DNA of 64,000 nucleotides from a virus. Location: positions 20,220 to 84,219 of the IMG/VR virus record IMGVR_UViG_3300032242_000738; one strand, written 5' to 3'. Position 1 is the first letter of the stretch, and every line of letters starts with the position of its first letter. A model generated the notes under the pieces. That model saw nothing but the letters and a program-made list of their open reading frames with translations, searched no databases and was not told where the DNA came from. Shown here one piece after another: positions 14,200 to 64,000 of the stretch. Made by a program: the position numbers and the translations under genes.

Positions 14200-15369
14200 A
14201 TGAGAGCCAATGAATTCATAACAGAAGTCAGAGATCGGATGTATCAATACATCCGAAGCATTGTTCCTACATGGCCAGAATATGTTGTGCAAGACTTGTT
14301 GTATAAAGGTCGCGGTAAAAATAAAAATTATAATGTCAATAGTGATGTCAAAGGCGAAATCCTTGAAATGATTGCGGACGCAGGACTAAGTCCCAACACT
14401 AACCCTTGGCAACTTGTGCCCAACATGAAGTTTACCATGGATATGTTTACTCCAAAGACCAAACAGAATTTAATAGCAAGGGCTGGCGGAAAAAGTGATT
14501 TAGGTATGGGCATACCAAAAGATGCTGAAAGACATGCTACACAAGCCGCACTTGTTCAACAAGTAGGTGTGAGTAAAGAACCAGTGATCTTAATAAAAAC
14601 ACCACACGGATATGCTCTACCAGAAGGTTGGCACAGAACTATACAACACTTTGCCAAGTATCCTGACGGATATACGGGTCCTGCTTATGTAGCAGTGGCA
14701 CATGGTCAGAACAGTTTGGAGGAAGGCTTGGAAGATTATGAAGGTATAAAAATCAAGTTCAGCAAAGATTCTAATGGAGTAGCAATCAAAGCATTATCAA
14801 ATGACAGCAACAAAGTATTAGGAAGTGTTGAACTATTTTTCAACGAAAAGGGACAGTTAGAACCGCAAGACCTTTGGGTCAATGATCGTTATCAAGGACA
14901 AGGCATTGCTAAAGCAATGTATGACTTTTTAAAAAATAAAGGCTACACTATTATTAGAAGTTGGGATCAAACTGACGCAGGTGCAGGATTTTGGAACAAG
15001 CACAAAGGCACAGGGGTCAATGTCTGGGAACAAGGTGTGGCGGAAGGCATCTCAAACGACATGTCTACAAAAGATATGATTGCATATCTAAGACAACACC
15101 ATGATACAAATCTACATCAAGATTATCTAAATCACATAAACACATTTAGCAAGTTTGTGTTACAAAATGTTCCTGTAAATTCAATCAAAACAAATTTGCC
15201 TAAACTAGATCCTGCAAAAGTAGAACAATACAAACAAATGGATTTTAGTAAGGCTCCTCCTATTGTAATGGGCGGGGGATATATTTTAGATGGTTACCAC
15301 AGAGCCAACGTAGCAAAAGCATTGGGTATTCCTACTATTAAAGCCTATGTTGGTATCACAACAAAATAA
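14200..15369 (+). CDS. modular polyprotein: ParB/Srx-like + GNAT-like + ParB/Srx-like
   Basis: Leader MRANEFITE; EPVILI...LPEGWHR; linker NSLEEG; LWVNDRYQGQGIAKAMY (GNAT motif A); linker EQGVAEG; PPIVM...ILDGYHRA. Confidence 0.75.
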   Translation: MRANEFITEVRDRMYQYIRSIVPTWPEYVVQDLLYKGRGKNKNYNVNSDVKGEILEMIADAGLSPNTNPWQLVPNMKFTMDMFTPKTKQNLIARAGGKSDLGMGIPKDAERHATQAALVQQVGVSKEPVILIKTPHGYALPEGWHRTIQHFAKYPDGYTGPAYVAVAHGQNSLEEGLEDYEGIKIKFSKDSNGVAIKALSNDSNKVLGSVELFFNEKGQLEPQDLWVNDRYQGQGIAKAMYDFLKNKGYTIIRSWDQTDAGAGFWNKHKGTGVNVWEQGVAEGISNDMSTKDMIAYLRQHHDTNLHQDYLNHINTFSKFVLQNVPVNSIKTNLPKLDPAKVEQYKQMDFSKAPPIVMGGGYILDGYHRANVAKALGIPTIKAYVGITTK

Positions 15370-20147: not shown

Positions 20148-20786
20148 ATGGCAACAGCCTCACAATCATTGTTTAACATGACAGTAGCGTCAGATAACTC
20201 TGGCGGAAATCAGGGCTTGCTAATGCCCAAACTACAATATCGTTTTAGAGTTAATTTTCTAAACTTTGGAGTTAGTAATGCCACTAATGAATTAACTAAG
20301 CAAGTTATTGACGTAACACGCCCATCAGTTAGTTTTGGTGAAATTAACATACCAGTTTATAACTCTACTATGTATTTGGCAGGTAGACATGAATGGCAAC
20401 CACTAACGGTTAATGTTCGTGATGATGCATCCGGTAGTGTTTCAAAATTAGTTGGACAACAGTTACAGAAACAAATGGACTTTGTTGAACAAGCTTCAGC
20501 CGCAACAGGTCAAGATTATAAGTTTCAAACAAATATTGAAATACTAGACGGTGGTAACGGTACTGCTACTCCAGTTGTATTAGAAACATGGGAAGTATAT
20601 GGTTGCTTCTTGCAGGCAGCTAATTACAATAACCTAGCTTATAGTTCTAACGAAGTTGTAACAATACAATTATCAATTCGCTTTGACAATGCAATTCAAT
20701 CACCATTGAGTTCTGGAGTTGGTACAAGTGTTGGTCGTGCCTTAGGTGGTAAATCAACTACAGGTATTGGTTCTGGTCAAGCTTAA
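20148..20786 (+). CDS. tail tube protein (T4 gp19-like)
   Basis: Directly after sheath; PKLQYRFRV...RPSVSF...LAGRHEW...ILDG...ETW...IRFDNA. Confidence 0.85.
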   Translation: MATASQSLFNMTVASDNSGGNQGLLMPKLQYRFRVNFLNFGVSNATNELTKQVIDVTRPSVSFGEINIPVYNSTMYLAGRHEWQPLTVNVRDDASGSVSKLVGQQLQKQMDFVEQASAATGQDYKFQTNIEILDGGNGTATPVVLETWEVYGCFLQAANYNNLAYSSNEVVTIQLSIRFDNAIQSPLSSGVGTSVGRALGGKSTTGIGSGQA

Positions 20787-46895: not shown

Positions 46896-47453
46896 ATGAC
46901 TAATAAAACTATATTAAACGAAGGCTTAGATTATCATGACCTAGAAGGGCAAATGATACCTACAGTAACGGTAGATGAATATGCCGCACACATGGGTACC
47001 GACAGTGAAATTGTAACATTAGCATTTACTATTAAAAGTGAAGCAGCCGGTAATGATTTAGTTGATTGGTTTGAGCGTGGTTATGATTTTGTATTAGATG
47101 CACAAGTAAGTGAAGGTGAAGTTAAGCCTGGACGATATCTAGTGTTTGTAGAAATGAATCGTAGAACTAGTGTACCAAAACGTATAATAGAATTATTAGA
47201 TGATTTAGAGACATTAACAGCTATACCAGTTAAAGATTGGACAATTATAGTTGATGATGAAGAATATCCACCTGAAGAAGATATATTAAAGCAAGTTATT
47301 ACTATCAGTCCACATGATTATCGTGAGACTGAAGAAGTTGAAGAAGAAGAAATAAATGAAATGCGTGAACGTGCTGGACTAGAAGTTAAAGCTATTCATT
47401 CAGATAAACAAGATGCTGATATTAAAGCATACAAATCAATGGCAGGACTATAA
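46896..47453 (+). CDS. hypothetical protein with MTNKTILNE leader
   Basis: Start reassigned to 46896; C-terminal MRERAGL / YKSMAGL motifs. Confidence 0.6.
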   Translation: MTNKTILNEGLDYHDLEGQMIPTVTVDEYAAHMGTDSEIVTLAFTIKSEAAGNDLVDWFERGYDFVLDAQVSEGEVKPGRYLVFVEMNRRTSVPKRIIELLDDLETLTAIPVKDWTIIVDDEEYPPEEDILKQVITISPHDYRETEEVEEEEINEMRERAGLEVKAIHSDKQDADIKAYKSMAGL

Positions 47454-51988: not shown

Positions 51989-52153
51989 ATGGCAAAGATT
52001 GTAACAGAATCAATCGTAATCACGTTTAGTAAGATAGTAAAAGATACTGAGCAGGGAGCTAGTATTACTAGTCCTGAGATAGAAGCGGCTTTAGAACAAG
52101 TTGCCCAAGAATTAATTGGCGATAGTGTAGTTGTTGAGGTTGTAAAAGCATAA
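51989..52153 (+). CDS. small hypothetical protein (54 aa), missing from the ORF track
   Basis: MAKIVTESIVITFSKIVKD...VVVEVVKA*; SD GGAG; late promoter at 51957; TAATG overlap with next gene. Confidence 0.75.
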   Translation: MAKIVTESIVITFSKIVKDTEQGASITSPEIEAALEQVAQELIGDSVVVEVVKA

Positions 52154-52539
52154 TGAGCCAAACAACCACACTTATATTATTGCCACAAACAGCTTATGTT
52201 AATCCAGGCAATGCCGCACCCTATACCGTAACGGGTAATAGCCAACCCGGTGCATCATATATTATAGCCCCTAGATCACTACAAACAGTTAATATTAACT
52301 TGACAAATTGTACTGGTAATATTACAATAGAAGCTAGTTTAGCTACCACGCCTGCCGACGGTGATTGGTTTAAGGTATATGAACTAGAAGCCAATGCAAA
52401 TGCGGCATCAAACTCCGCCCCGCAAATTGCAAGTAATGCATCTGTATATACAAATATAGATGGTAACTTTGTATATATGAGAGCTAAAGTTGTTGACTTT
52501 AACGGTGGATTAGTTAATTTTGTAAAGCTAAGTTATTGA
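52153..52539 (+). CDS. small beta-rich virion-like protein
   Basis: G.ITIEASLA..P...DWF...GNFVYMRAKV. Confidence 0.55.
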   Translation: MSQTTTLILLPQTAYVNPGNAAPYTVTGNSQPGASYIIAPRSLQTVNINLTNCTGNITIEASLATTPADGDWFKVYELEANANAASNSAPQIASNASVYTNIDGNFVYMRAKVVDFNGGLVNFVKLSY

Positions 52540-52540
52540 T

Positions 52541-53530
52541 ATGAGATATATTGTTGTCATGCCGGGAGGCTTTCACCCATTTCATGCTGGACATGCCGCA
52601 TTGTATCAGAGTGCAGTAAAAGCATTTCCCGGTGCCGACGTTTATGTGGCTGCAACTAATGACACAAAGACACGTCCGTTTCCGTTTGCTATTAAAGAGA
52701 AACTAGCAAAACTTGCAGGTGTAGCTGATAAACACTTTGTACAAGTTAAAAGTCCATTTCAACCTAGAGAAATAACCGATCACTATAACCCTGCAGAAGA
52801 TGTATTAATCTTTGTACGTAGTGAAAAGGATCGTAATGAAAGCCCTAAACCAGGTGGTACAAAGAAAGATGGTAGTCCTGCTTATTTTCAACCATGGACA
52901 GGTAAAAATGTACAGCCATTTGGTAAACAAGCATATATTGCTTATCTGCCGACAGTAGAGTTTGGCCCTGGCATTACTAGTGCAACAGAGATACGTAATG
53001 CATGGCCTACATTGAATGATAAACGTAAGACAGCGATGGTTATGAGTTTATATCCTGTAACACAAAAGAATCCTAAACTAGCCGCTAATGTTGTTAAGAT
53101 GTTAGATATGGGTATGGGTAGTGAACTGTCGGAGGGCGAAATTATCCCATTCAAACAACCATCAAAAACATTAACATGGCAACAAGTACCTAGAGATATT
53201 TTGTTACTAGCCAATGATTGGTTTTGGGCAAGTGAAGATAACTCAGGTCTTGCCGCTACTATAGATCCTGAGGGTTTTGGTAATGGTACTGCTAATGATG
53301 TAAAATATTTAACAGCAAAACTTCAACAAAAAGGCTGGACAATTGATTTTAATGATGAATATGATGGTCCGGGAGAATACAATCTAAGACTTACTAACAA
53401 ACGTGGACAAACGGTATTATTGTCTATTGAGGATGCTCAGACATTTACCGGTTGGGCAAAGGGTACTAGTCAATATGATTTAGAAGAAACTACTGTTACC
53501 GAAAACTTAGATTACCTAGAAGAAAAATAA
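52541..53530 (+). CDS. HxGH cytidylyltransferase-like nucleotidyltransferase with appended C-terminal module
   Basis: MPGGFHPFHAGH and TSATEIRN; linker SELSEG then an unrelated module of about 125 aa. Confidence 0.8.
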   Translation: MRYIVVMPGGFHPFHAGHAALYQSAVKAFPGADVYVAATNDTKTRPFPFAIKEKLAKLAGVADKHFVQVKSPFQPREITDHYNPAEDVLIFVRSEKDRNESPKPGGTKKDGSPAYFQPWTGKNVQPFGKQAYIAYLPTVEFGPGITSATEIRNAWPTLNDKRKTAMVMSLYPVTQKNPKLAANVVKMLDMGMGSELSEGEIIPFKQPSKTLTWQQVPRDILLLANDWFWASEDNSGLAATIDPEGFGNGTANDVKYLTAKLQQKGWTIDFNDEYDGPGEYNLRLTNKRGQTVLLSIEDAQTFTGWAKGTSQYDLEETTVTENLDYLEEK

Positions 53531-53581
53531 TTTGATCACCTTGTTTTGATGTAAATAATACTATCTTAACAAGAGGATCAA

Positions 53582-54562
53582 ATGGCAACAAAGAAAACAA
53601 CCGAAAAGGCAGCAGAGAAACCTGCAAAAGCCGCAACAAAAACAACTGCTACTAAAGCACCAGCAAAAACAAAAGCTACTAAAGAACCTAAAACAGTTCC
53701 TGTAGAAAAGGTACAAGAAATAGCTGAACAGGCTGCACAAGAAGCTGCACAAGCTCCGGCAGCACCTTCTCCCGGACAAGTACAAGTTAACGTAGATTTT
53801 CTAAAAACTACTAAAGTACATATCGCTATGCCATGTTATGGGGGTATGCTTACCGAATCTACATTCATGAGTTTCATTAAGTGGGCCAACACAGCTCGTC
53901 AACTTGGTATTGATTGGACATTAGAAACAATGGTTAATGAATCACTTATTAGCCGAGCACGTAATACACTAACTGCTAAGTTCTTAGACATGCCAGACGC
54001 AACACACTTATTCTTTGTTGATGCTGACATTGGTTGGGAGCCATGGCACTTGTTAGTACTATTAAACCGTGACGTTGATGTTATTGGTGGATTGTACCCA
54101 ATGAAGACTATGCCAATCAAATGGGTAGTTAACGGATTTGAAGGTGCAGAAGAAGGCACTGATGGCTTACAAGAAGTAAGTAAAGCAGGTACAGGTTTCT
54201 TATTGATGAAGAAACATGTATTTGAGAAAATGAAATCTCACCCAGCTGTTAAACAGTATAAGAATGATATTGGTTTAGATCCAAAGTTTGACCAACACTT
54301 AAAGACCTATTTTGATACAGCAGTACGTCAGAATCGTTATTATAGTGAAGACTGGACATTCTGTGAAAACTGGCGTGACTTAGGTGGACGTATTTGGGTT
54401 GACAAACGTGTATTACTACGTCACAGTGGTAGTTATGTATTCTGTATGGAAAATCAGGAACATCTATTGAAAACAGTTGGACCTATGTTCCTACAAGAAC
54501 AGCAAGAAAAACATGGAATAAAGATTCTTGATAAAGATGGTAATGAAATAAAGAAACCATAA
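53582..54562 (+). CDS. GT-A-fold glycosyltransferase-like protein with Lys/Ala/Thr-rich N-tail
   Basis: IAMPCYGG, ESLISRARN, FFVDADIGW, GGLYP.K, GTGFLL, YSEDWTFC. Confidence 0.75.
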   Translation: MATKKTTEKAAEKPAKAATKTTATKAPAKTKATKEPKTVPVEKVQEIAEQAAQEAAQAPAAPSPGQVQVNVDFLKTTKVHIAMPCYGGMLTESTFMSFIKWANTARQLGIDWTLETMVNESLISRARNTLTAKFLDMPDATHLFFVDADIGWEPWHLLVLLNRDVDVIGGLYPMKTMPIKWVVNGFEGAEEGTDGLQEVSKAGTGFLLMKKHVFEKMKSHPAVKQYKNDIGLDPKFDQHLKTYFDTAVRQNRYYSEDWTFCENWRDLGGRIWVDKRVLLRHSGSYVFCMENQEHLLKTVGPMFLQEQQEKHGIKILDKDGNEIKKP

Positions 54563-54565
54563 AAC

Positions 54566-54590
54566 AAAGGCCCCGAAAGGGGCTTTTTTA
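54566..54590 (+). terminator. intrinsic terminator
   Basis: AAAGGCCCC-GAAA-GGGGCTTTTTT. Confidence 0.9.
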
Positions 54591-54607
54591 ATGGCATAAT
54601 GTCCATT

Positions 54608-54625
54608 TTGTCACATTATTGACAC
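54608..54625 (+). promoter_or_regulatory. Pho-box-like direct repeat
   Basis: TTGTCAC-ATTA-TTGACAC, 11-bp period. Confidence 0.45.
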
Positions 54626-54688
54626 ATATTATCAATTAAATAATAGTGTGCCATGGTGGCACAAAAACTAACCCACAAGGAGAGACCC

Positions 54689-55336
54689 ATGAGATTAGAA
54701 GATTTGGCCGCAAGATTAGTAGCTGTAGAAGCTAAGTTAGCCAGTTTAACTGGTGTAGCAGTTAACACAGACAATGCCACAAGTATTGAAGAATTAGATG
54801 CAAGATTATCAGTCGTTGAAGTTCAAGTTGACCAATTAATTGCAGAAAAAACAGAAAGCCACATTGATGCTATTGTTGCCGCAGTTGCAAATGATGCACC
54901 GGTTGATGTAGCAGAAGTAGTTGCATTATCACCAAGTGCTGAACATGTAGAAGCTTCTGAAATCGTTGCTGATGTTGTTACAGCACAATTAGAAGCAGAA
55001 CCTGTTGCCCACGCAGAAGTTGCTGAAATTGTTGCAGCCGCAATCTCTGCTGTTGTTACAGCAGAGCCAGAAGTTGTTGTTGACCCTGTAGCAATTACAG
55101 CCGCAATCATGGTGGCAGTTGCTGATATGCCCGCACCCGCACCTGAAGTTGCAGAAGTAGTTGCAGCCGCAGTTGCTGAAGTAATTGCTACAGCTACAGG
55201 TGTTGAAGAAGTTTCTCCTGAAGTAACACAACAAATCGCTGAAGCAGTTTCAACTCCAGCTGATCCTGCATTAGATATAATTGAAGAACGTCTAAACGTC
55301 GCAGAAGCAAAAGTTGATTTTTTATTGGGAAAGTGA
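54689..55336 (+). CDS. acidic Ala/Val/Glu-rich helical protein; probable -1 frameshift extension to 55389
   Basis: Start reassigned to 54689 after SD AAGGAG; three (L/I)xxRLxxxE heptad motifs; ends at G_GGA_AAG TGA. Confidence 0.75.
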   Translation: MRLEDLAARLVAVEAKLASLTGVAVNTDNATSIEELDARLSVVEVQVDQLIAEKTESHIDAIVAAVANDAPVDVAEVVALSPSAEHVEASEIVADVVTAQLEAEPVAHAEVAEIVAAAISAVVTAEPEVVVDPVAITAAIMVAVADMPAPAPEVAEVVAAAVAEVIATATGVEEVSPEVTQQIAEAVSTPADPALDIIEERLNVAEAKVDFLLGK

Positions 55337-55358
55337 TAACTGGCGTTAAACGCTGGTT
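55327..55358 (+). other. programmed -1 ribosomal frameshift signal
   Basis: Slippery GGGAAAG at 55327-55333 in frame G_GGA_AAG, then hairpin AACTGGCGT-TAA-ACGCTGGTT at 55338-55358. Confidence 0.7.
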
Positions 55359-55418
55359 CATAAACCTCTTTAGATCGGACACAAAATAGCGTGTCGCTGG
55401 ATTTGCGTAACCAGTACT

Positions 55419-55441
55419 AAGAGCCTAAAAGGCTCTTTTTT
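55419..55441 (+). terminator. intrinsic terminator
   Basis: AAGAGCC-TAAAA-GGCTCTTTTTT. Confidence 0.85.
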
Positions 55442-55451
55442 AATGGACTTA

Positions 55452-55469
55452 CTGTCACATATTTGTCAT
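55452..55469 (+). promoter_or_regulatory. Pho box (PhoB-binding direct repeat)
   Basis: CTGTCAC-ATAT-TTGTCAT: two TGTCA units 11 bp apart with A/T spacer, upstream of the plcP-like gene. Confidence 0.7.
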
Positions 55470-55490
55470 AATATTATAAATAAATACAAG

Positions 55491-56240
55491 ATGAAGACAT
55501 ACCGCTCTATATTTGTTAGTGATGTTCATCTTGGTACTAAAGATAGCCAAGCAGATAAGTTAAATAATTTTCTTAAACATAACACCTGTGACACATTATA
55601 TCTTGTAGGTGATATTATAGATGCATGGCGTATACAACAAAACAAATGGAGATGGAAACAAAGTCATACCAATGTAGTTCGTAGAGTATTAGGTCATGCT
55701 AAACGTGGAACTAAAGTTATATATATTGCAGGCAATCATGATGAATTCTTACGACCTATGATACCATATGGATTTAGTTTTGGTCTTATAGAGATACATA
55801 ATCAGATTGAACATATAGGTGTAGACGGTAAACATTATTTGGTAGTGCATGGTGACTTATTTGATGGTATAACACGATTAGCACCATGGTTAAGTTTTTT
55901 AGGAGATAAAGCATATGATTTCATTTTATCGTTTAATAGTAAATTCAATTGGATCCGTCATCGCATGGGTTTTGGGTACTTTAGTATTAGTAAATATCTT
56001 AAACACAAAGTAAAAAAAGCTATAGATTTTATATTTCAGTTTGAGAAAAATATTACCGCTTATTGTAAAAAGCGCGGTTTTGATGGTGTTATCGTAGGTC
56101 ATATTCACTCAGCCGAAATAAAAGAAATGGATGGCATAATCTACATGAATGATGGTGACTGGGTTGAATCGTGTACCGCATTAGTAGAACATCATGACGG
56201 TAAGTGGGAAATAATCACCTGGACTAAAGAACACGATTAA
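55491..56240 (+). CDS. plcP: calcineurin-like metallophosphoesterase, PlcP (phospholipase C)/LpxH-like
   Basis: YRSIFVSDVHLG, LYLVGDIIDAW, YIAGNHDEFLR, VHGDLFD, GHIH, NDGDWVESCTALVE; start reassigned to 55491. Confidence 0.75.
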   Translation: MKTYRSIFVSDVHLGTKDSQADKLNNFLKHNTCDTLYLVGDIIDAWRIQQNKWRWKQSHTNVVRRVLGHAKRGTKVIYIAGNHDEFLRPMIPYGFSFGLIEIHNQIEHIGVDGKHYLVVHGDLFDGITRLAPWLSFLGDKAYDFILSFNSKFNWIRHRMGFGYFSISKYLKHKVKKAIDFIFQFEKNITAYCKKRGFDGVIVGHIHSAEIKEMDGIIYMNDGDWVESCTALVEHHDGKWEIITWTKEHD

Positions 56241-56285
56241 AACACAATATATGTTCACATATTACATCGTGGGCATAAATACAAT

Positions 56286-57113
56286 ATGATGAACTTGCTA
56301 GGACTTAAACATTACCTAATTAATACTATCTACGGGTCAGATGGAAAAATATCCACAGGGAAATTTAAAAGCCTACCGATAGAAGTTAAAAATAGTATTT
56401 TACATTTTACCAATAAATGCCAATCAGATAAGTTATCCGAACGGATTTACTGGATACTAAACGATTTACAAGATTATCCTGCTAAATGTAAATACTCTGC
56501 CTGTGATAACCCACTGAGATTTAAAGGTGGTTATCAAGGAGTATTCTGTTCATATAGTTGTAATTCAAAATACCAATTGTCAGTGTTGCCGAATCCTTTT
56601 AGTGGACTATTAGGAATACAGCGTAGGAAAAATGGGATGATGAAAAAATATGGTGTAGACCATAATATGAAGACTAAAGAAAGTCTTGTTAAACGACAAC
56701 AAACTTATATTGACAACTATGGTGTTGACCATCCATTGAAATCAAAAGAGATTATAGATAGCGTAAGAAAGAAAAATGAAGATGCTGGCAGATGGACTCC
56801 TGAAGAACAAATGGAAGAATTTTATCTGTATAGACGAAAGGTATGGCACTATACTAATCAGCAACCGATTGAAACTCTGCCTAACTATACCCTACGGGGA
56901 CACGCAAGTAATAAAACCGCCTACTCATTGGATCATAGATTTTCTTGCCACGAAGGGTTTATGAAAAACATCCCTCCGGAAATAATAGGGAACATATCAA
57001 ATCTTGAGTATATACCTAACGTACAGAATTCAAGCAAGAAGACTGCTTGCTCACTAACCAAAGAAGAATTGTATGAAAGATATAACAGCTCAAATACAAA
57101 AATAACAGAATAA
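56286..57113 (+). CDS. putative free-standing HNH homing endonuclease
   Basis: CxxxxC...CSYSC, repeated YGVDH, and YSLDHRFS...IGNISNLEYIP...NSSK HNH-like motif; sits between plcP and GT2. Confidence 0.7.
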   Translation: MMNLLGLKHYLINTIYGSDGKISTGKFKSLPIEVKNSILHFTNKCQSDKLSERIYWILNDLQDYPAKCKYSACDNPLRFKGGYQGVFCSYSCNSKYQLSVLPNPFSGLLGIQRRKNGMMKKYGVDHNMKTKESLVKRQQTYIDNYGVDHPLKSKEIIDSVRKKNEDAGRWTPEEQMEEFYLYRRKVWHYTNQQPIETLPNYTLRGHASNKTAYSLDHRFSCHEGFMKNIPPEIIGNISNLEYIPNVQNSSKKTACSLTKEELYERYNSSNTKITE

Positions 57114-57140
57114 ATATAAGATAAGAATATAGTAACTACT

Positions 57141-57212
57141 ATGACAAATAAATCGCTTAGAGATTACATCAATTTAATAGAATCAAACGAGCAAGGTTTG
57201 GCGGGCAAATGA
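57141..57212 (+). CDS. 23-aa 'empty' leader+linker ORF (MTNKSLRDYINLIESNEQGLAGK), possibly a remnant
   Basis: Below ORF-track cutoff; TAAATA at 57111-57116; leader like other head-cargo proteins; ends in linker-like GAGCAAGGTTTGGCGGGC. Confidence 0.5.
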   Translation: MTNKSLRDYINLIESNEQGLAGK

Positions 57213-57224
57213 CCAACGACAATC

Positions 57225-57935
57225 ATGAAATTCAGTGATAAAATTACTATTGTTATTCCTTGCAAAAATGAAGAAAACTATATTCATCATTTATTAGAAT
57301 CACTACGTTTACAATACATAGGTGATACTAGGATTATCATTGCAGACTGTTCCACTGACAATACTAGAAAAGTCATAAAGGATAATAGTTATTCATTGAA
57401 CGTAGAAATCATTGATGGTGGTCCTGTTAGTATTGCCAAGAATAATGGTGCCAAATTAGTCACAACACCATATATACTATTCATTGATGCTGATGTACGT
57501 TTCTTTAAAAATAATGTAATTCATGATGCGGTTAAAGAAATAGAAGCTAAACGATTGGATCTTGTTGGATTGAACATTAAATCTTATGATAATGATCCAA
57601 GAGCAATGATTAGCTTTGCTATTTTTAATACAATCAATCATACATTGAAATATTTTAGTCCATTTGCTGTTGGGGCATTTATGTTAACACGCACAGACAA
57701 GTTTATGGAATATGGTGGATTTCCAGAAAAGTTTGCAACATCAGAGGACTATTTCTTATCTAGGAAATATAGCCCTAGAAAATTTAAAATTGTTAAACAT
57801 CATTTTGGTCAAGATAGCCGTAGATTTAAAAGAATGGGATATCTAGGTATGGCTAAATATCTGGTCAAGAATTTTGTCAATCGTAACAACAAACAATATT
57901 GGGATAAACTAGATTCATCTAAATATTGGAGTTGA
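57225..57935 (+). CDS. family 2 glycosyltransferase
   Basis: TIVIPCKNEE, IIADCSTDNT, AKNNGA, ILFIDAD, GGF.E...SEDY. Confidence 0.9.
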   Translation: MKFSDKITIVIPCKNEENYIHHLLESLRLQYIGDTRIIIADCSTDNTRKVIKDNSYSLNVEIIDGGPVSIAKNNGAKLVTTPYILFIDADVRFFKNNVIHDAVKEIEAKRLDLVGLNIKSYDNDPRAMISFAIFNTINHTLKYFSPFAVGAFMLTRTDKFMEYGGFPEKFATSEDYFLSRKYSPRKFKIVKHHFGQDSRRFKRMGYLGMAKYLVKNFVNRNNKQYWDKLDSSKYWS

Positions 57936-57985
57936 TAACGGTTCTTTTTATTCAGTACTAATGACTTGTTACTGATAAATACTCT

Positions 57986-60169
57986 ATGGACCTAAAAGAA
58001 CTACACTCCTTCAAATTGTCAGATGCTGTGACATTTCACGATCACCTAAATCCTAAACTATTTCGTGGTCAACATCTACAACCTGAAGTAGAACTACAAC
58101 TAAAAACAATTGCAAAAGATTTCCTACAAGAGATGGGAATACATGATTTAGATGTACGTGATATTACTATATCCGGAAGTAATGCAGCCTATAGCTATAC
58201 AGACCATAGCGACTTAGATTTACATATTCTAGTTAATATGAGTGATTTACCTAACGATGAAATATACCGTGAATTGTTTACAGCTAAAAAAGACTTATAT
58301 AATGATTCACATGATATTACTATTCACGGAATTCCAGTAGAATTATATATACAAGATGCATCAGAACCTGTAGTTAGTTTAGGTGAGTATAGTATTAAAG
58401 ATAACAAATGGTTACGTTTACCTACAAAACGTAGAGCAAACTTTGACCAAACAGCTACTAAAGCAAAATATAATAAGTTATTAGATGTAATTGAGAAAAC
58501 ACTACAAACTGATAATATAGCCAAAGTATCAAAAGTATTGAAGAAAATCAAACAATATCGTCAAGCTGGATTAGATAAAGGTGGAGAGTTTGGCCCTGAA
58601 AACTTAGCATATAAAATGTTGCGTAGCCAAGGTTATATTACAAAATTATATGATTTGCGTGATAAGTTACATAGCAAAATATTAAGTTTGAATGGTATGT
58701 ATTCTAATGTACTTGATGAAATTATAGATATGCCTCCAATTACTAGGCGTATGGATATACAATCAATGTATAATGATGTACAGACTAAACTTAAATATCA
58801 TCAGGCAACTAAGTTAACATCTATTAATTTTCCTATGAAAAATCAAGTATTTCGTGAAGATAATTATGGATATAAGTTTTTCTTATTTAACAAAGAGAAT
58901 AAACCAGTGTTTTATCTTGGTATAAGTAAGTTTCATGATGGTTACAAAACAGGTGCGGTTGCGGGTGAAAGTGAAGTTAGTGGACAGGGTTTAGGATGGA
59001 AGTTATATAAAGCAGTAAGTGATTATTTAAATGTACCTTTATATAGTGATAGCACACAAACATCTGATAGTAAGAAGGGTATTTGGCAAAAACTAATACA
59101 TAATTATCCTAAACAAGTGGTAGGATATGACCAAATATCACGTAAGGATGTACCCATTAAAAACATATATCAACCATTACCACAAGATCAGTTACGACAT
59201 GTAGATGATGATACCAGAAGAAATACATTGTTATTAAAGTTTCTACCAGCTGTAGTACAAGAAGATTTAAATGAATCATTTGGTATAGGTCCACTACAAG
59301 TAGGTGATATGTGGTTTGATATTAGAAAACATGCATTAGAGAGATTAGAAGAACGTAGGGTACCTATATCTACTGCAAAAGAATTGTTACGTAGAATTTC
59401 ATTAATGAAGAATAAAATTCAACAAATGGATGCGGGACAGGCTTTTTGGGTTCATGATCCTAGTTTAGGTATTTCAATGGGTATGAGGTTATTGGGCAGT
59501 GGTAAAGTTCAATGGGCTACTACTATTATAGGTGAACCTAGAAACCGTGATGCTAATAATCCAATAATTGATATCAATGAAGCTTTTCATAAGCCATATT
59601 CATTTAAATGGGAAAAGAGTGAGTACGGTGATTATGATGCATTAGCAAAACTACCAGACGACACAAACTTAAGCATTATGTTTAATCTAGCCGATATGTC
59701 AGATAATAACTGGGGGGTTGAATTTTATAGAAACAATAGTCAATCGGTCACCGGGGAAGGTGATGCTCAACGAGTATTTGCTACAGTACTAAATGCTATT
59801 AGTCAATTTATTAAAAAGAAAAAACCTAATACTCTATTTTTTACCACTGTAAAAGAAGAAGATCCTACTGGCAGCAGAACAAAACTATACGATAGATTAG
59901 CTCAACGATATGCTACTGGGTTAGGTTACGATTTAAAAAAAGTAGAATATCCTGAACAAATAGGATATAAGTTAACACGCAACGAACAAAAAGTAACAGA
60001 AGCCTCTGGTTATATTCCTAGCGAAAAAGAAAAGAATGACCCACGTTACAAGACAGCATTAACTGTGGATGTACATCCAGATAGTATCAAAAAGAACGCT
60101 AAATCCTTCTATTGGAAGACTAATAGAGCTGGAATTCCACCAACAGCTAATCCTTCAGGCAAAATCTAA
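57986..60169 (+). CDS. modular polyprotein: Pol-beta-type nucleotidyltransferase + GNAT-like + further modules
   Basis: ISGSNAAYSY...SDLDLHI...PVELY (GS..DxD..E); modules begin after VLDE, DLNE, DINE and KVTE; GQGLGWKLY...LYSDSTQT is GNAT-like. Confidence 0.75.
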   Translation: MDLKELHSFKLSDAVTFHDHLNPKLFRGQHLQPEVELQLKTIAKDFLQEMGIHDLDVRDITISGSNAAYSYTDHSDLDLHILVNMSDLPNDEIYRELFTAKKDLYNDSHDITIHGIPVELYIQDASEPVVSLGEYSIKDNKWLRLPTKRRANFDQTATKAKYNKLLDVIEKTLQTDNIAKVSKVLKKIKQYRQAGLDKGGEFGPENLAYKMLRSQGYITKLYDLRDKLHSKILSLNGMYSNVLDEIIDMPPITRRMDIQSMYNDVQTKLKYHQATKLTSINFPMKNQVFREDNYGYKFFLFNKENKPVFYLGISKFHDGYKTGAVAGESEVSGQGLGWKLYKAVSDYLNVPLYSDSTQTSDSKKGIWQKLIHNYPKQVVGYDQISRKDVPIKNIYQPLPQDQLRHVDDDTRRNTLLLKFLPAVVQEDLNESFGIGPLQVGDMWFDIRKHALERLEERRVPISTAKELLRRISLMKNKIQQMDAGQAFWVHDPSLGISMGMRLLGSGKVQWATTIIGEPRNRDANNPIIDINEAFHKPYSFKWEKSEYGDYDALAKLPDDTNLSIMFNLADMSDNNWGVEFYRNNSQSVTGEGDAQRVFATVLNAISQFIKKKKPNTLFFTTVKEEDPTGSRTKLYDRLAQRYATGLGYDLKKVEYPEQIGYKLTRNEQKVTEASGYIPSEKEKNDPRYKTALTVDVHPDSIKKNAKSFYWKTNRAGIPPTANPSGKI

Positions 60170-60224
60170 TAAGTTTCCATATTACGGTATTTTGATAAAT
60201 ACACTATTAGTATGGGAATCCTTT

Positions 60225-61145
60225 ATGAAAATCAGTCAAATCATCAGTGAAACAACTACAGCAGGCTCAATAGCTACTGTAGACACAGCTTTAGGTGCTA
60301 CACAATCTAGGGGTAATCCTAGCATATATGGCAATAAGAAAGTTGGTAACCTTTTTAAAGGCAAGAAAACAAAAGCTCCATACGCTAATAGCATCAATGA
60401 AAGTGCTGAAATTAGCGAACAAGATTTAAGTGAACAAGATTTAATTGTTGTTCCTGGTCAGGGGCGTAGTCTTAAAACTGGATTTGTCAAACATGATCCT
60501 GATCGTGCAGAACATGAAGGACAAACATTAAAGAATAGTTTACATACTATTATTCGTGTAGCAAAACATTTGGATCAAGAATTATCAACAAGAGATGACT
60601 TCCCTGAGTGGGTTTCAGAGAAAATTGGTGCTACAAAGAGCATGATGGTATCTGTTATGGATTATTTAATTAGTGCAAAAGAAATGAATCATGATCCAGA
60701 TGCGGTTGATGAAAGTATAGAAAATAATCCAGTTGCAAATGCAATCATAAGTCATGTTATGAAATATCGTCCTGATTTATTAAAACATGGTGCTGACCGT
60801 GTAGGTGATGCTATTGATAGAATTGTAAGTCGTGTAGGTAATGTTAAATATATCAGTCCTGATAACTTAAACAAATTGATAAAACAAGTTGAATACTATG
60901 TTACATCTAATAACCATGACATGTATGAAGGTAAACCTAATACAAAATGTGTATGCAAAACAATGGGCCAAGATCAATGTCCAGTACATGCTCCATTAGA
61001 TGAAGGTGCTAAAGTAGACCGTATGGTTAAGCATGTTGCACAATCAGAAAAGAAACTTGGTCACAGTAAAAAAGAAGCAGAGAACATTGCTTGGGCTACA
61101 GCCAACAAGCGTGGCATGTTAGACAATAAAAACAAGAAGAAGTAA
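60225..61145 (+). CDS. modular head-cargo-like protein with MKISQIISE leader
   Basis: Start reassigned to 60225; ETTTAGSIA, FPEWVSEKI, IAWATANK modules separated by xxE sites. Confidence 0.65.
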   Translation: MKISQIISETTTAGSIATVDTALGATQSRGNPSIYGNKKVGNLFKGKKTKAPYANSINESAEISEQDLSEQDLIVVPGQGRSLKTGFVKHDPDRAEHEGQTLKNSLHTIIRVAKHLDQELSTRDDFPEWVSEKIGATKSMMVSVMDYLISAKEMNHDPDAVDESIENNPVANAIISHVMKYRPDLLKHGADRVGDAIDRIVSRVGNVKYISPDNLNKLIKQVEYYVTSNNHDMYEGKPNTKCVCKTMGQDQCPVHAPLDEGAKVDRMVKHVAQSEKKLGHSKKEAENIAWATANKRGMLDNKNKKK

Positions 61146-61146
61146 T

Positions 61147-64000
61147 ATGAGTAATATTCTTAAAGGTATATTAAACGAATCTAATCCTTTTTATGGACAT
61201 AATGATCCAGCAAAAGAATACGGAGCTGATGCACCCACATATCGTAAACGTGGCCCTTATTCACATACAGATGATGATGAAGATGTTAATCCATTTGCTG
61301 AATATGAACGTCAGCAAAAAGACTTTGCTATTGGTCGTGCAAAGAAAGCGGCAGCTGAAAAACAACAACGTGATAGTGACCATGATAGATTAGCTAGTGG
61401 TACAAATGAAAGTATGGATGATCCATGGGGACCACAAGGTAACTTTGCAGGTGATACGCCAGTCAATTTAGGTGGTGTGTCTATGAAGATCATACAAGTA
61501 GGTGATACTGTTAAGTATTTTGGATACCCTGCTAAAGTAGTTGATATGAGTAAGGATCGTAAGTATTCACGCATTACAATTACTAAAGGGATGGGTAGTG
61601 TTACACAAGATGTATTAACAAGTGATTTACAACAATTAGGTCGTGGTAAAGAAGTACGAGAAGATAATAATACTAGAATGAAAATGGATCAGTATTATGA
61701 ATTAGCAGATGCTATTCAAGAAAAACTCAGAAACGCAATACAGTTTGGTGATAAAGAACTTATAAAAAAATTAAACAAAGAACGTGAAGAATTAGATGCA
61801 CGTGTTAAACAACATGGATTGATGCCCGAATCAGAACAACTAGATGAAATCTCTAATGAGAAACTAGCACAATATAAAACAGCTGCCGCTGCCGATGCAG
61901 GCAAAGCTGATAGTGAAGGTGATTACAAACGTGGTGATAAACGTTTCAGTGGTATTGTTCGTGCAACTAAAAAACAATTTGCTAATGATGCAAAGAAATC
62001 TGCTATTAGTCAAGGTATAAATGAATTTTCTGTAAATCCTACTGGTCCTAAAGGTCCTAAAGATTACGGTCAACCAAATAGTTCACGTTATATAGGTGGT
62101 AACAAGTTTGTAGTAGGTACTACTAACAACTATGTGTTAACTGCAACAATAGACAAATGGGGATTAGAATGGGATGAGGATGATGAAGTATGGTTCTTAG
62201 ACAGTCCTGGTGCCGCACATATTGCTGATGCAAGTGAAGGTGAAATAGAATTGCCCCCACCACGTGAACAGAGATATCAAATACATGATTTAGTAACTGA
62301 TTATCTCAATAGTAAAAATTTAGCAGATTTACAAAAAGTAGCCAAATACTATGGTCATAGTGATGACGGTGAAATGGCAACAAATGAAGAATATAGACCT
62401 ACAACTGGTCAAGCTAATAATATACGTAAACAAACTGCACAGAAAATGAATCCAGGCAGTAGTAAATTTGTTTGGAAAAGACCTAATCAAATAAGTGGTA
62501 GTCATACTGAACAAGAATTACTATCAATGGGTTTTCGTAAATCTACAAAGAGTAACGTATGGGGCGGTACACAAGATATGTGGAATCGTTTATCAGAATC
62601 ATTATATGAATTTGCACCAAATAATGATGATGACGATTCAGATGACTATCAGATGTTAAGAAAACTAGCGTCACAATGGTATAATGGATCTGATGACCAA
62701 ATGTTAAAGATTGAACATGTGTTATCTACCATGGGTTGGGAAATAGGTGAAGATGAATCTGGTGAACCAGATGCAGGTGTATTTGTAATACGCACCGGTG
62801 ATATCAATGGTGATACATATATTGCTTTCCCCGAAAGTGAATTAAATTTAAATGAAAACTTAGGTGATCAATTAAAATCTACATCATTAGATGCATTGAT
62901 TCAAGCTAAACTAGCTATAGAGAAACAACGTGAAGCTGACATAGAAGCTTGGAGACAGGATTTTGAAAAGAATACTGTACAAAAAGCACAACAAGGTTTA
63001 CGTAGACAATTTGAACCAACACCAGTATCACAGCCTGGCGAGAAGCATTCAGTATTAAAGAATAGATTAATGCAATTGAATAGTGCTATAGAGAAACAAG
63101 AAATAGTAGATAAGTTAGTTGATAGATTAGAACGTAAGGGTTTAATGACTCCTGCAATGAAGAATGATACTGATACAAGAATGCATGTTAGATATGGTGC
63201 AAAAGATAACTATCAATCATTAAATCAGAAATTGGATAATGCTATTAATATGTTAAAACATAGATTGGCAATGCGTAAGATTTCTGGATTGAAGGAAAGC
63301 AATGATGAAGAACAATTAGATGAATTAAGTTGCTGGTCTGGTTATCATAGAGTTGCTGGTACCAAAGCAGGCTTTCCAGGTAGTTGTGAAAAAAACAAAA
63401 CTAATGAAGATCACACCGAGAAATGCCCGCACTGTGGTGGCGAATTGGTCAGTGAAGAATTGATGAATGAAAAGAAAGATGCTTGCTACTATAAAGTTAA
63501 GAGCCGTTATAAAGTATGGCCAAGTGCTTATGCTAGTGGTGCGTTAGTTAAGTGCCGCAAGAGCCATGGTAGTTGGGGCAATGGTGGAAAGAAGAATGAA
63601 AGTTCTATACTAGAAGGCATTGAAAGAGCAGATGAGAACTTACACCAATGGTTCAAAGAAAAGTGGGTACGTTTTGGTCCTGATGGAAAGATTCGTGGTG
63701 ACTGTGCTAGAGGTGATGATAGTGAAGGTAAGCCAAAGTGTTTACCACAAAGTAAAGCACAAAATTTAGGTAAGAAGGGTCGTGCAAGTGCTGCTGCACG
63801 TAAGCGTAGAGAAGATCCTAATCCAGAACGTAGTGGTAAAGCCATCAATGTTAACACCAAAAAGAAGTCTAACGAAGGTGTGGCGGAAGGCTCTAACGCC
63901 GGAGATATTGAATTATCACATAGTATGTCTCCTGATATGTTGTATGTACACGCTACATCAGATGGAACAGATGTAGGTGGCGCAAGATTTAAAAAAATAG
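61147..64000 (+). CDS. large modular polyprotein (at least 951 aa), 3'-truncated, missing from the ORF track
   Basis: Frame open from ATG 61147 (MSNILKGILNE) to the window end; modules include KKDACYYKVKSRYKVWPSAYASGALVKCRK and LHQWFKEKWV...GKPKCLP; linker NEGVAEG at 63871-63891. Confidence 0.85.
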   Translation, partial: MSNILKGILNESNPFYGHNDPAKEYGADAPTYRKRGPYSHTDDDEDVNPFAEYERQQKDFAIGRAKKAAAEKQQRDSDHDRLASGTNESMDDPWGPQGNFAGDTPVNLGGVSMKIIQVGDTVKYFGYPAKVVDMSKDRKYSRITITKGMGSVTQDVLTSDLQQLGRGKEVREDNNTRMKMDQYYELADAIQEKLRNAIQFGDKELIKKLNKEREELDARVKQHGLMPESEQLDEISNEKLAQYKTAAAADAGKADSEGDYKRGDKRFSGIVRATKKQFANDAKKSAISQGINEFSVNPTGPKGPKDYGQPNSSRYIGGNKFVVGTTNNYVLTATIDKWGLEWDEDDEVWFLDSPGAAHIADASEGEIELPPPREQRYQIHDLVTDYLNSKNLADLQKVAKYYGHSDDGEMATNEEYRPTTGQANNIRKQTAQKMNPGSSKFVWKRPNQISGSHTEQELLSMGFRKSTKSNVWGGTQDMWNRLSESLYEFAPNNDDDDSDDYQMLRKLASQWYNGSDDQMLKIEHVLSTMGWEIGEDESGEPDAGVFVIRTGDINGDTYIAFPESELNLNENLGDQLKSTSLDALIQAKLAIEKQREADIEAWRQDFEKNTVQKAQQGLRRQFEPTPVSQPGEKHSVLKNRLMQLNSAIEKQEIVDKLVDRLERKGLMTPAMKNDTDTRMHVRYGAKDNYQSLNQKLDNAINMLKHRLAMRKISGLKESNDEEQLDELSCWSGYHRVAGTKAGFPGSCEKNKTNEDHTEKCPHCGGELVSEELMNEKKDACYYKVKSRYKVWPSAYASGALVKCRKSHGSWGNGGKKNESSILEGIERADENLHQWFKEKWVRFGPDGKIRGDCARGDDSEGKPKCLPQSKAQNLGKKGRASAAARKRREDPNPERSGKAINVNTKKKSNEGVAEGSNAGDIELSHSMSPDMLYVHATSDGTDVGGARFKKI

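Follow-up and report, generated by a model that had tools for sequence, protein, structure and literature searches.

What is the origin of a gene that has a promoter-like motif and a conserved N-terminal leader and ends almost directly behind them? This question is raised by a mini open reading frame (mini-ORF) in a 64,000-nt stretch of viral DNA (IMG/VR record IMGVR_UViG_3300032242_000738, positions 20,220 to 84,219; hereafter, the window). The source is an uncultured giant phage represented by a viral contig of 84 kb (24% complete), to which the window belongs. In its tail sheath, this phage shares 41.6% identity with PA5oct-like Pseudomonas jumbo phages, and the freshwater contigs related to it reach 524 kb. 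The mini-ORF (57141–57212, (+) strand) starts with ATG at 57141, encodes 23 aa reading MTNKSLRDYINLIESNEQGLAGK, and ends with TGA at 57210–57212, 12 nt upstream of the ATG (57225) of a GT2 glycosyltransferase gene. The initial annotation had described a TAAATA motif followed by a leader ORF and a stop codon, with no cargo. We located the motif at 57111–57116, where it includes the TAA stop codon of the upstream ORF (57111–57113), and the ORF as given above.

We consider it probable that the mini-ORF is the zero-cargo state of a cargo-expression slot found in uncultured freshwater giant T4-type phages, and a relic of cargo loss at a linker. In the proposed scheme, such a slot would comprise, in order, ATAAATA with a short 5′ untranslated region (5′UTR), a leader of 14–16 residues ending in L-I-E, a QGVAEG linker, cargo modules, and a closing pair of lysine codons with a stop codon (KK-stop). 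It would hold zero, one, or two modules, with a further linker copy at the end of each, and recombination between two linker copies would remove or add whole modules in frame, so that with no modules left the product would be leader-linker-KK-stop. In the window, the emptied slot would be part of an insertion between plcP and GT2, where it immediately follows a homing endonuclease gene, and would later have drifted by a change of Val to Leu, the loss of the Glu codon and of one Lys codon, and a change in a ribosome-site-like GGA. All relatives used in the analysis are metagenomic contigs.

The leader, its cargoes, and the linker

The leader of the mini-ORF (codons 1–16, MTNKSLRDYINLIESN; 57141–57188, (+) strand) is identical in DNA to that of three other loci (L084, L222, and L207). 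With L084, which was found by a codon-level pattern search, every letter agrees from 57135 to 57197 (63 consecutive letters). Over a 94-nt block reaching from −31 to +63 of the ATG, the window is 94% identical to 10 of the 13 other loci compared and 83–90% identical to L084, L222, and L213 (90% for L213). Judged from these alignments, the homology is far above the chance level, and the mini-ORF is not a chance ORF.

L084 contains plcP, then a 5′UTR and leader of the window's type, QGVAEG, and a cargo truncated by the end of the contig. A protein search with the L084 fragment gave 121 matches among 138 candidates; 10 of the 121 matched proteins begin with the MTNKSLRDYINLIE leader and show six different continuations. 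In metagenome loci, MTNKSLRDYINLIE..QGVAEG is followed by five different continuations, and two more are found in proteins P0115 and P0120. As these continuations read, at least seven unrelated cargoes stand behind an identical leader and linker. The initial annotation had proposed looking in relatives for the same leader fused to cargo, and this is borne out by L084 and 11 further metagenome loci, which account for the five continuations. The metagenome scan yielded 44 leader-family loci, 12 of which belong to the MTNKSL subfamily and, together with L084 and the window, bring it to 14 loci; a looser scan of viral contigs found 39 loci in which a DYINLIE leader precedes many cargoes. The MTNKSL slot is located downstream of plcP or of the same endonuclease as in the window (92% aa identity in L246) and upstream of a GT4-like gene.

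Approximately 90 of the matched proteins share a 128-residue module, which lies between two GVAEG motifs and occurs at many different positions, and the proteins with this module carry deaminase, GNAT, ParB, nucleotidyltransferase, or chitinase domains. Pfam recognized no family at its default threshold in nine leader-cargo proteins (there was one sub-cutoff match), and the leader-cargo protein P0004 had no match among 50,697 phage records. In a sister subfamily (MTNKSI; L208–L250), many proteins are variable in the middle and share a conserved C terminus (..ETSPEAIAKINQITRR-stop); in these genes, head and tail are fixed as well, but of another kind.

The conserved block spans ATAAATA to ..CAAGGTGTGGCGGAAGG, and beyond it all copies diverge immediately in the alignment. 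Specifically, most loci are 97–100% identical from −31 to +63, compared with 84–86% in the coding DNA upstream of the block where this is homologous (elsewhere it is unrelated) and 58–81% in the DNA downstream where cargoes differ. ATAAATA (57110–57116 in the window, (+) strand) is the left end of the block in other contigs as well; in the window, it forms the left edge of the conserved slot head and overlaps the endonuclease stop codon. The window contains 26 (+)-strand copies of this motif versus 2 on the (−) strand, and 16 of the 26 are located ≤40 nt upstream of a gene start, where 0.9 would be expected. The motif looks like a late promoter of the phage and is presumably active as one. In the 5′ untranslated spacer that follows (57117–57140, (+) strand), the relatives' GGA within TATAGGAACTACT is aligned with GTA in the window; 12 of the 13 other copies read TATAGGAA, L227 has an A at that position, and the T is found in the window only. 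The same 24 nt also resemble L082 (4836–4860) codon for codon, in the manner of a decayed leader of the other common type (MRAQEFL..), which hints that one leader was placed behind another leader's remains.

The spelling of the linker DNA is fixed even at silent, rare-codon positions. Among 67 GVAEG sites in distinct contexts from the fetched loci, the canonical 15-mer occurs at 48, with the GTG codon at 65 (background, 17%), the GCG codon at 60 (8%), and GGC for the last Gly at 52 (24%). A pattern allowing any synonymous codon matched six sites in five other records, five of them with the same spelling. At the protein level, GVAEG occurs 131 times in 120 database proteins, compared with 0.12 expected from composition. 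The window itself holds two intact linker copies, an identical 17-mer at 15032–15048 and 63875–63891, inside long genes that are otherwise unrelated, and the codons used there make up 4–12% of their families. A Chi-like function of the G/T-rich linker, or one in ribosome pausing, is conceivable as well. We found no description of the GVAEG linker in a literature search that did not extend to papers' supplements.

Filled and empty alleles

Slots without cargo recur. In two metagenome contigs (L232 and L240), the gene consists of leader-QGVAEG-KK-stop (25 codons), and a GT4-like gene begins 7 nt past its stop codon. The filled genes L213, L207, and L222 have the same terminal element as the empty ones (linker-AAAAAG-TAG-TAA), so that the cargo of a filled gene, which ends with a second linker, is bracketed by two direct linker repeats; 4 of 120 database proteins end in this linker-KK-stop fashion. 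Altogether, 3 of 10 complete ORFs of the MTNKSL subfamily (window, L232, and L240) are without cargo. The initial annotation had wavered between an empty acceptor and a scar, and these alleles settle the matter as a recurring zero-cargo state that is slightly decayed in the window.

Two natural pairs of filled and empty alleles locate the difference precisely. L222 (one module) aligns with L240 in two pieces that have 20 nt on the linker in common, and the empty allele lacks 364 nt of cargo; L207 (two modules) and L232 likewise align in two pieces, with 23 nt on the linker in common, and here the empty allele lacks 493 nt of cargo. Both pairs have the signature of repeat-to-repeat gain or loss, which is thus apparent twice, and by all appearances the linker is the precise point at which modules are gained, lost, or swapped among the relatives. 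The downstream genes of L232 and L240 are 77% identical over 298 nt, and each resembles its own filled partner there, which suggests two separate events.

In the window, the linker is decayed (57189–57206, (+) strand): it encodes E-Q-G-L-A-G in place of E-Q-G-V-A-E-G, owing to one G>T change and one missing codon. The canonical spelling, GGTGTGGCGGAAGGC, is represented by GGTTTGGCGG-GC, with one substitution and a 3-nt gap, and we filed this sequence as a probable decayed derivative of the codon-locked GVAEG linker. It is followed by a Lys codon and TGA (57207–57212, (+) strand), a probable remnant of the terminal KK-stop, since L232, L240, L213, L207, and L222 all end in linker-AAA-AAG-TAG. 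The statement of the initial annotation that the ORF ends right after a linker copy holds, with a decayed linker as that copy. After CAAGGT, the window reads TTGGCGG-GC-AAA-TGA and the empty alleles read GTGGCGGAAGGT-AAA-AAG-TAG; in our alignment, they differ by one G>T, two 3-nt gaps, one T>C, and the stop codon. Lys and a stop codon directly behind the linker are what the slot's terminal element predicts, and a random junction would rarely yield them.

The spacer before GT2 (57213–57224, (+) strand) contains no Shine-Dalgarno-like run, and its last 10 nt are the native plcP–GT2 junction. Specifically, 57215–57224 exactly matches the plcP 3′ end of one relative over 10 nt, and the spacer tail compared with 43 plcP ends had a mean score of 6.88 versus 4.98 for random 36-mers, with 0 of 300 controls as high. 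Local alignment of 57205–57224 against all fetched loci gave chance-level matches only. An insertion boundary within 57195–57210, as proposed in the initial annotation, agrees with the filled cassettes, to which homology stops inside the linker at 57204–57206; relative to the insertion-free plcP–GT2 lineage, the limit is slightly further right, at the native junction (57215–57224).

Several observations weigh against the proposal of a slot emptied by cargo loss at the linker. The window's match to the KK-stop element amounts to 17 of 21 letters with two 3-nt gaps, and the right junction (57205–57214) comprises 10 nt without an assigned origin, which an illegitimate join would fit too. No filled allele with GT2 downstream was found, and the loss event in the lineage of the window is therefore not directly seen. 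None of the window-lineage records G001 (complete), G002 (95% complete), and G003 (79% complete) contains the leader, so the slot is foreign to this lineage and its history uncertain. The intact linkers of L232 and L240 across diverged flanks hint that an empty slot can be maintained instead of decaying. Finally, the head protease family PF03420 was not found in the window's own record (24% complete).

The plcP–GT2 insertion and rival explanations

The insertion is flanked by a plcP-like metallophosphoesterase gene on the left (55443–56240, (+) strand; Pfam Metallophos, 1.3e-11) and the GT2 gene on the right (57225–57935, (+) strand; Pfam Glycos_transf_2, 1.4e-21). Between plcP and the mini-ORF lies a free-standing homing-endonuclease-like gene of 828 nt (56286–57113, (+) strand; DUF7487, 1.9e-11; phrog_3339 "homing endonuclease," 1e-8), with ATAAATA upstream at 56275; the mini-ORF is thus the right end of an endonuclease-containing plcP–GT2 segment, as first described. 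Of 368 GT2 relatives found in viral contigs, the best 80 were fetched, and plcP and GT2 are adjacent, with a gap of 0–168 nt, in all 73 related loci that have both genes; the 828-nt gene lies between them in none of the 73, and the site in the window is an insertion. Moreover, a contig of the source sample joins 56200 directly to 57225, which indicates that an insert-free relative co-occurs there. In a blastn comparison of 55400–58000 with cultured relatives, the sole match was 155 nt of plcP in one Pelagibacter phage record.

Endonuclease orthologues are found in L082 (86% aa identity), L083 (78%), and L246 (92%), and only two viral contigs contain one. In L082, plcP and the endonuclease gene are followed by a GNAT-like gene of 258 aa, which has a different leader, and then by GT2; DNA homology with the window extends up to 57126 and is found again from 57225. 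The sample comparison covered contigs of four (X1–X4) of 20 listed runs, of which those other than X1 gave only small shares; the sole run with the whole stretch is probably the window's own source sample. X2 and X3 contigs, from another study's samples, likewise break at 57126 and continue into an L082-like leader gene. These breakpoints, together with the resumption at 57225, delimit the variable piece as 57127–57224. In a 280-nt X3 contig, the match to the window is confined to 57110–57204.

Because an empty slot would encode only a tag and a linker, the mini-ORF is most likely inert, i.e., dead as a protein gene. Its promoter-like motif, together with a stop codon 12 nt before a GT2 start that has no Shine-Dalgarno sequence, may now serve GT2 as a late promoter and by translational coupling. 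A rival explanation, which is compatible with a relic and to which we give a modest chance, goes further and takes the slot for a co-opted expression module: GT2 would have lost its former ribosome site inside the plcP 3′ end, and ATAAATA and translation of the mini-ORF would provide late transcription and termination-reinitiation. Indeed, AAGGAG, which in the relatives lies within the plcP 3′ end and precedes the GT2 ATG by 10 nt, is missing from the window; the association of ATAAATA with gene starts and the 7-nt distance from the empty ORF's stop codon to the next gene in L232 and L240 fit as well. However, none of the runs listed as containing the stretch is an RNA run, the mini-ORF's own ribosome-site-like GGA is mutated, and the RNA fold of the region is unremarkable (z-score, 0.38).

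It seems unlikely that the mini-ORF is instead a one-sided homing scar, in which the endonuclease would have arrived from a donor carrying endonuclease, leader, and cargo, with homology-directed repair on the plcP side and an illegitimate join in the linker that truncated the cargo gene. The mini-ORF does abut the endonuclease gene, and native junction letters resume 2–3 nt past its stop codon. However, the endonuclease gene (84% nt identity with L082; 94% with L246 over the 340 nt upstream of the slot) diverges from its orthologues about as much as the flanking plcP does, and the sliding identity against L082 and insert-free relatives shows no switch near the plcP 3′ end, i.e., no co-conversion tract; the insertion is therefore not recent. 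As there was no switch, co-conversion was dropped as a sign of recent homing. The lysine codon and stop past the linker, which match the slot's own terminal element, also speak against a scar.

A second slot with this architecture bears on the same explanation. At a split nrdA (ribonucleotide reductase), a GIY-YIG endonuclease gene is followed by a MNKNIRDYINLIEN.. leader gene, whose cargo differs between L125 and L164. In L088 (minus strand, about 2430–2494), a truncated leader ORF (21 aa) likewise stands directly behind the GIY-YIG homing endonuclease, which would fit a scar, yet this copy, 21 codons long, is a pseudogene that retains a decayed linker and remnants of cargo and offers no clean junction. 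Taken together, the plcP–glycosyltransferase and split-nrdA slots show two endonuclease families adjoining leader slots at two loci, and this recurrent pairing hints that the endonucleases may drive the exchange of cargo.

As a variant of the scar, a deletion could have run from the linker to a duplicated plcP 3′ end of the kind seen in L082 and L246, for which the similarity is too weak to decide. In those two loci, a duplicated plcP 3′ end is retained behind the slot (L246, 1064–1162; L082, 5613–5636), which implies that an endonuclease-plus-slot unit went into the plcP end with target duplication. In L232 (oriented 60–990), a stretch of ~900 nt without a long ORF lies between the plcP end and the empty slot; it has a weak reverse-strand match to the DUF7487 endonuclease (E-value of 8e-6) and may be a decayed endonuclease gene.

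That the empty slot is a working acceptor site, kept for the in-frame capture of linker-flanked cargo in the manner of an integron attachment site, is doubtful. Empty slots are present in three contigs, two of them with a perfect linker even though their downstream genes are only 77% identical, and two-linker modules occur at many positions in more than 90 proteins. On the other hand, the slot has no associated recombinase, the window's linker is short of a codon and of one base of the 15-mer, which leaves a shorter stretch of homology, and selection for future use is no mechanism. A bolder proposal, which we put forward tentatively as a possibility, is that an in-frame cassette system operates without a dedicated recombinase and has the codon-locked linker as its genuine recombination site. 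A fixed head (late promoter, head-address leader, and linker) and a fixed tail (linker and KK-stop) would then bracket zero to n modules, breaks made by the adjacent homing endonucleases would drive exchange between co-infecting phages, and the empty slot would be a reusable landing site and not debris.

A chance ORF or an assembly artifact at a repeat is extremely improbable: with 124 ORFs of ≥20 aa listed in 52000–62000, the length of a 23-codon ORF is by itself uninformative, and short repeats common to co-occurring phages can mislead assemblers, but the 63 consecutive letters shared with L084 and the 94-nt block, 94% identical in 10 of the 13 loci compared, contradict chance, the window's slot linker is unique in the window within three mismatches and leaves no repeat to collapse, and a Logan contig of the source sample, which comes from a second assembly but not from independent DNA, covers 55904–57265 with 0 differences.

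Proposed head targeting and comparison with known systems

In T4, a short address tag loads almost any protein into the phage head, and such cargo genes evolve fast; to our knowledge, the natural route by which new cargo comes to stand behind the tag is not known. The slot would provide a concrete answer on cargo acquisition, as its natural zero-, one-, and two-module alleles differ exactly between linker copies and its empty alleles (the window and its two intact counterparts) are the state that repeat-to-repeat exchange predicts. If the linker is also a cut site of the head protease, one 18-base element would define both the protein products and the DNA joint, and the head-plus-linker unit would be a natural design for loading proteins into phage capsids. 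New in this work are the slot without modules, its closing linker-KK-stop, the two pairs of filled and empty natural alleles, and the association with homing endonucleases.

According to the available portions of two papers, the T4 head protease gp21 cleaves after L/I-x-E (PMC9026906), the first 10 residues of IPIII suffice for loading foreign proteins into heads, and the cargo behind the T4 tag is diverse among T-even phages (PMC9026906; PMC3012670). In the window, L-I-E at leader residues 12–14 (57174–57182) fits the L/I-x-E rule of T4-type head proteases, the linker contains V-A-E, and the gp21-family domain PF03420 is present in the relatives G001–G003 and in the leader-bearing G004; four smaller leader-bearing records showed none. 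We infer a head-cargo slot whose modules would be released by the protease and whose linker DNA would also be the cross-over point. The slot resembles the T4 internal proteins IPI, IPII, IPIII, and Alt, as described in the same portions (PMC9026906; PMC3012670), in that a short conserved N-terminal tag precedes diverse, fast-evolving cargo and ends in Glu within an L/I-x-E context, with a gp21-family protease in related genomes and a T4-late-like A/T motif upstream; this is a likeness by description, not by alignment. Unlike the T4 tag, that of the slot is followed by a linker whose DNA spelling is fixed; copies of this linker flank each cargo and reappear within long multi-module proteins. 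The slot also differs from the T4 internal proteins in closing with linker-KK-stop, in having zero-, one-, and two-module alleles, and in that its targeting and cutting are putative.

Among T4-type phages, PeSLs are non-coding elements with an early, sigma-70-like promoter and a terminator stem-loop, as stated in the available part of Arbiol et al. 2010 (PMC2839356). Like the slot, they are short conserved border motifs that serve as cross-over points for the gain, loss, or replacement of non-essential genes; as far as that part goes, the slot differs in its joints, of which the first is a late-type motif and the second is part of the coding sequence and in frame with it. The PeSL combination of sigma-70 promoter and terminator is not found at the slot: in 56100–58100, no terminator-like sites were found, and promoter-like matches showed no excess (10 versus 15.5 expected). 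Polyvalent proteins (Iyer et al. 2017, as cited in PMC7824862) are multi-domain proteins proposed to enter the host with the DNA. In the available part of that account, they resemble the linker proteins in stringing together unrelated enzymatic modules (GNAT, deaminase, ParB, and nucleotidyltransferase), and it mentions no common leader, fixed linker, or DNA-level joint, in contrast to the linker system. The window ORF, unlike polyvalent proteins, has no module.

The mosaic neighborhood of the insertion, with a gene between two conserved genes that is absent from most relatives, is like that of T4-type homing endonucleases. Free-standing homing endonuclease genes of T4-type phages cause co-conversion of flanking markers; unlike this picture, two endonuclease families lie beside leader-cargo slots at two loci here, and there is no co-conversion tract. 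Integrons possess a tyrosine integrase and attI/attC sites, with a promoter-proximal site and cassettes each ending in a repeat, and their empty site is legitimate. Like integron arrays, the slot has a variable number of cassettes, each closed by a repeat, and allows an empty state; unlike them, its repeats are 15–23 nt long, in frame, and translated, with no attC-like folded site, and exchange would presumably occur by general homologous recombination. No integrase was seen among the neighboring ORFs in general family scans, which did not include a search aimed at integrases.

An [LI]xE motif occurs within residues 5–16 of 11 of 53 window N termini, compared with a background of 7.2% (P ~0.001). 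The initial annotation had likened the mini-ORF leader to three other N termini; all three are real (24358, 25000, and 46896), while their resemblance to the leader is loose and weak. The gene of one of these loosely similar leaders (46896–47453) matches a PHROG annotated as "virion structural protein" (1.2e-18).

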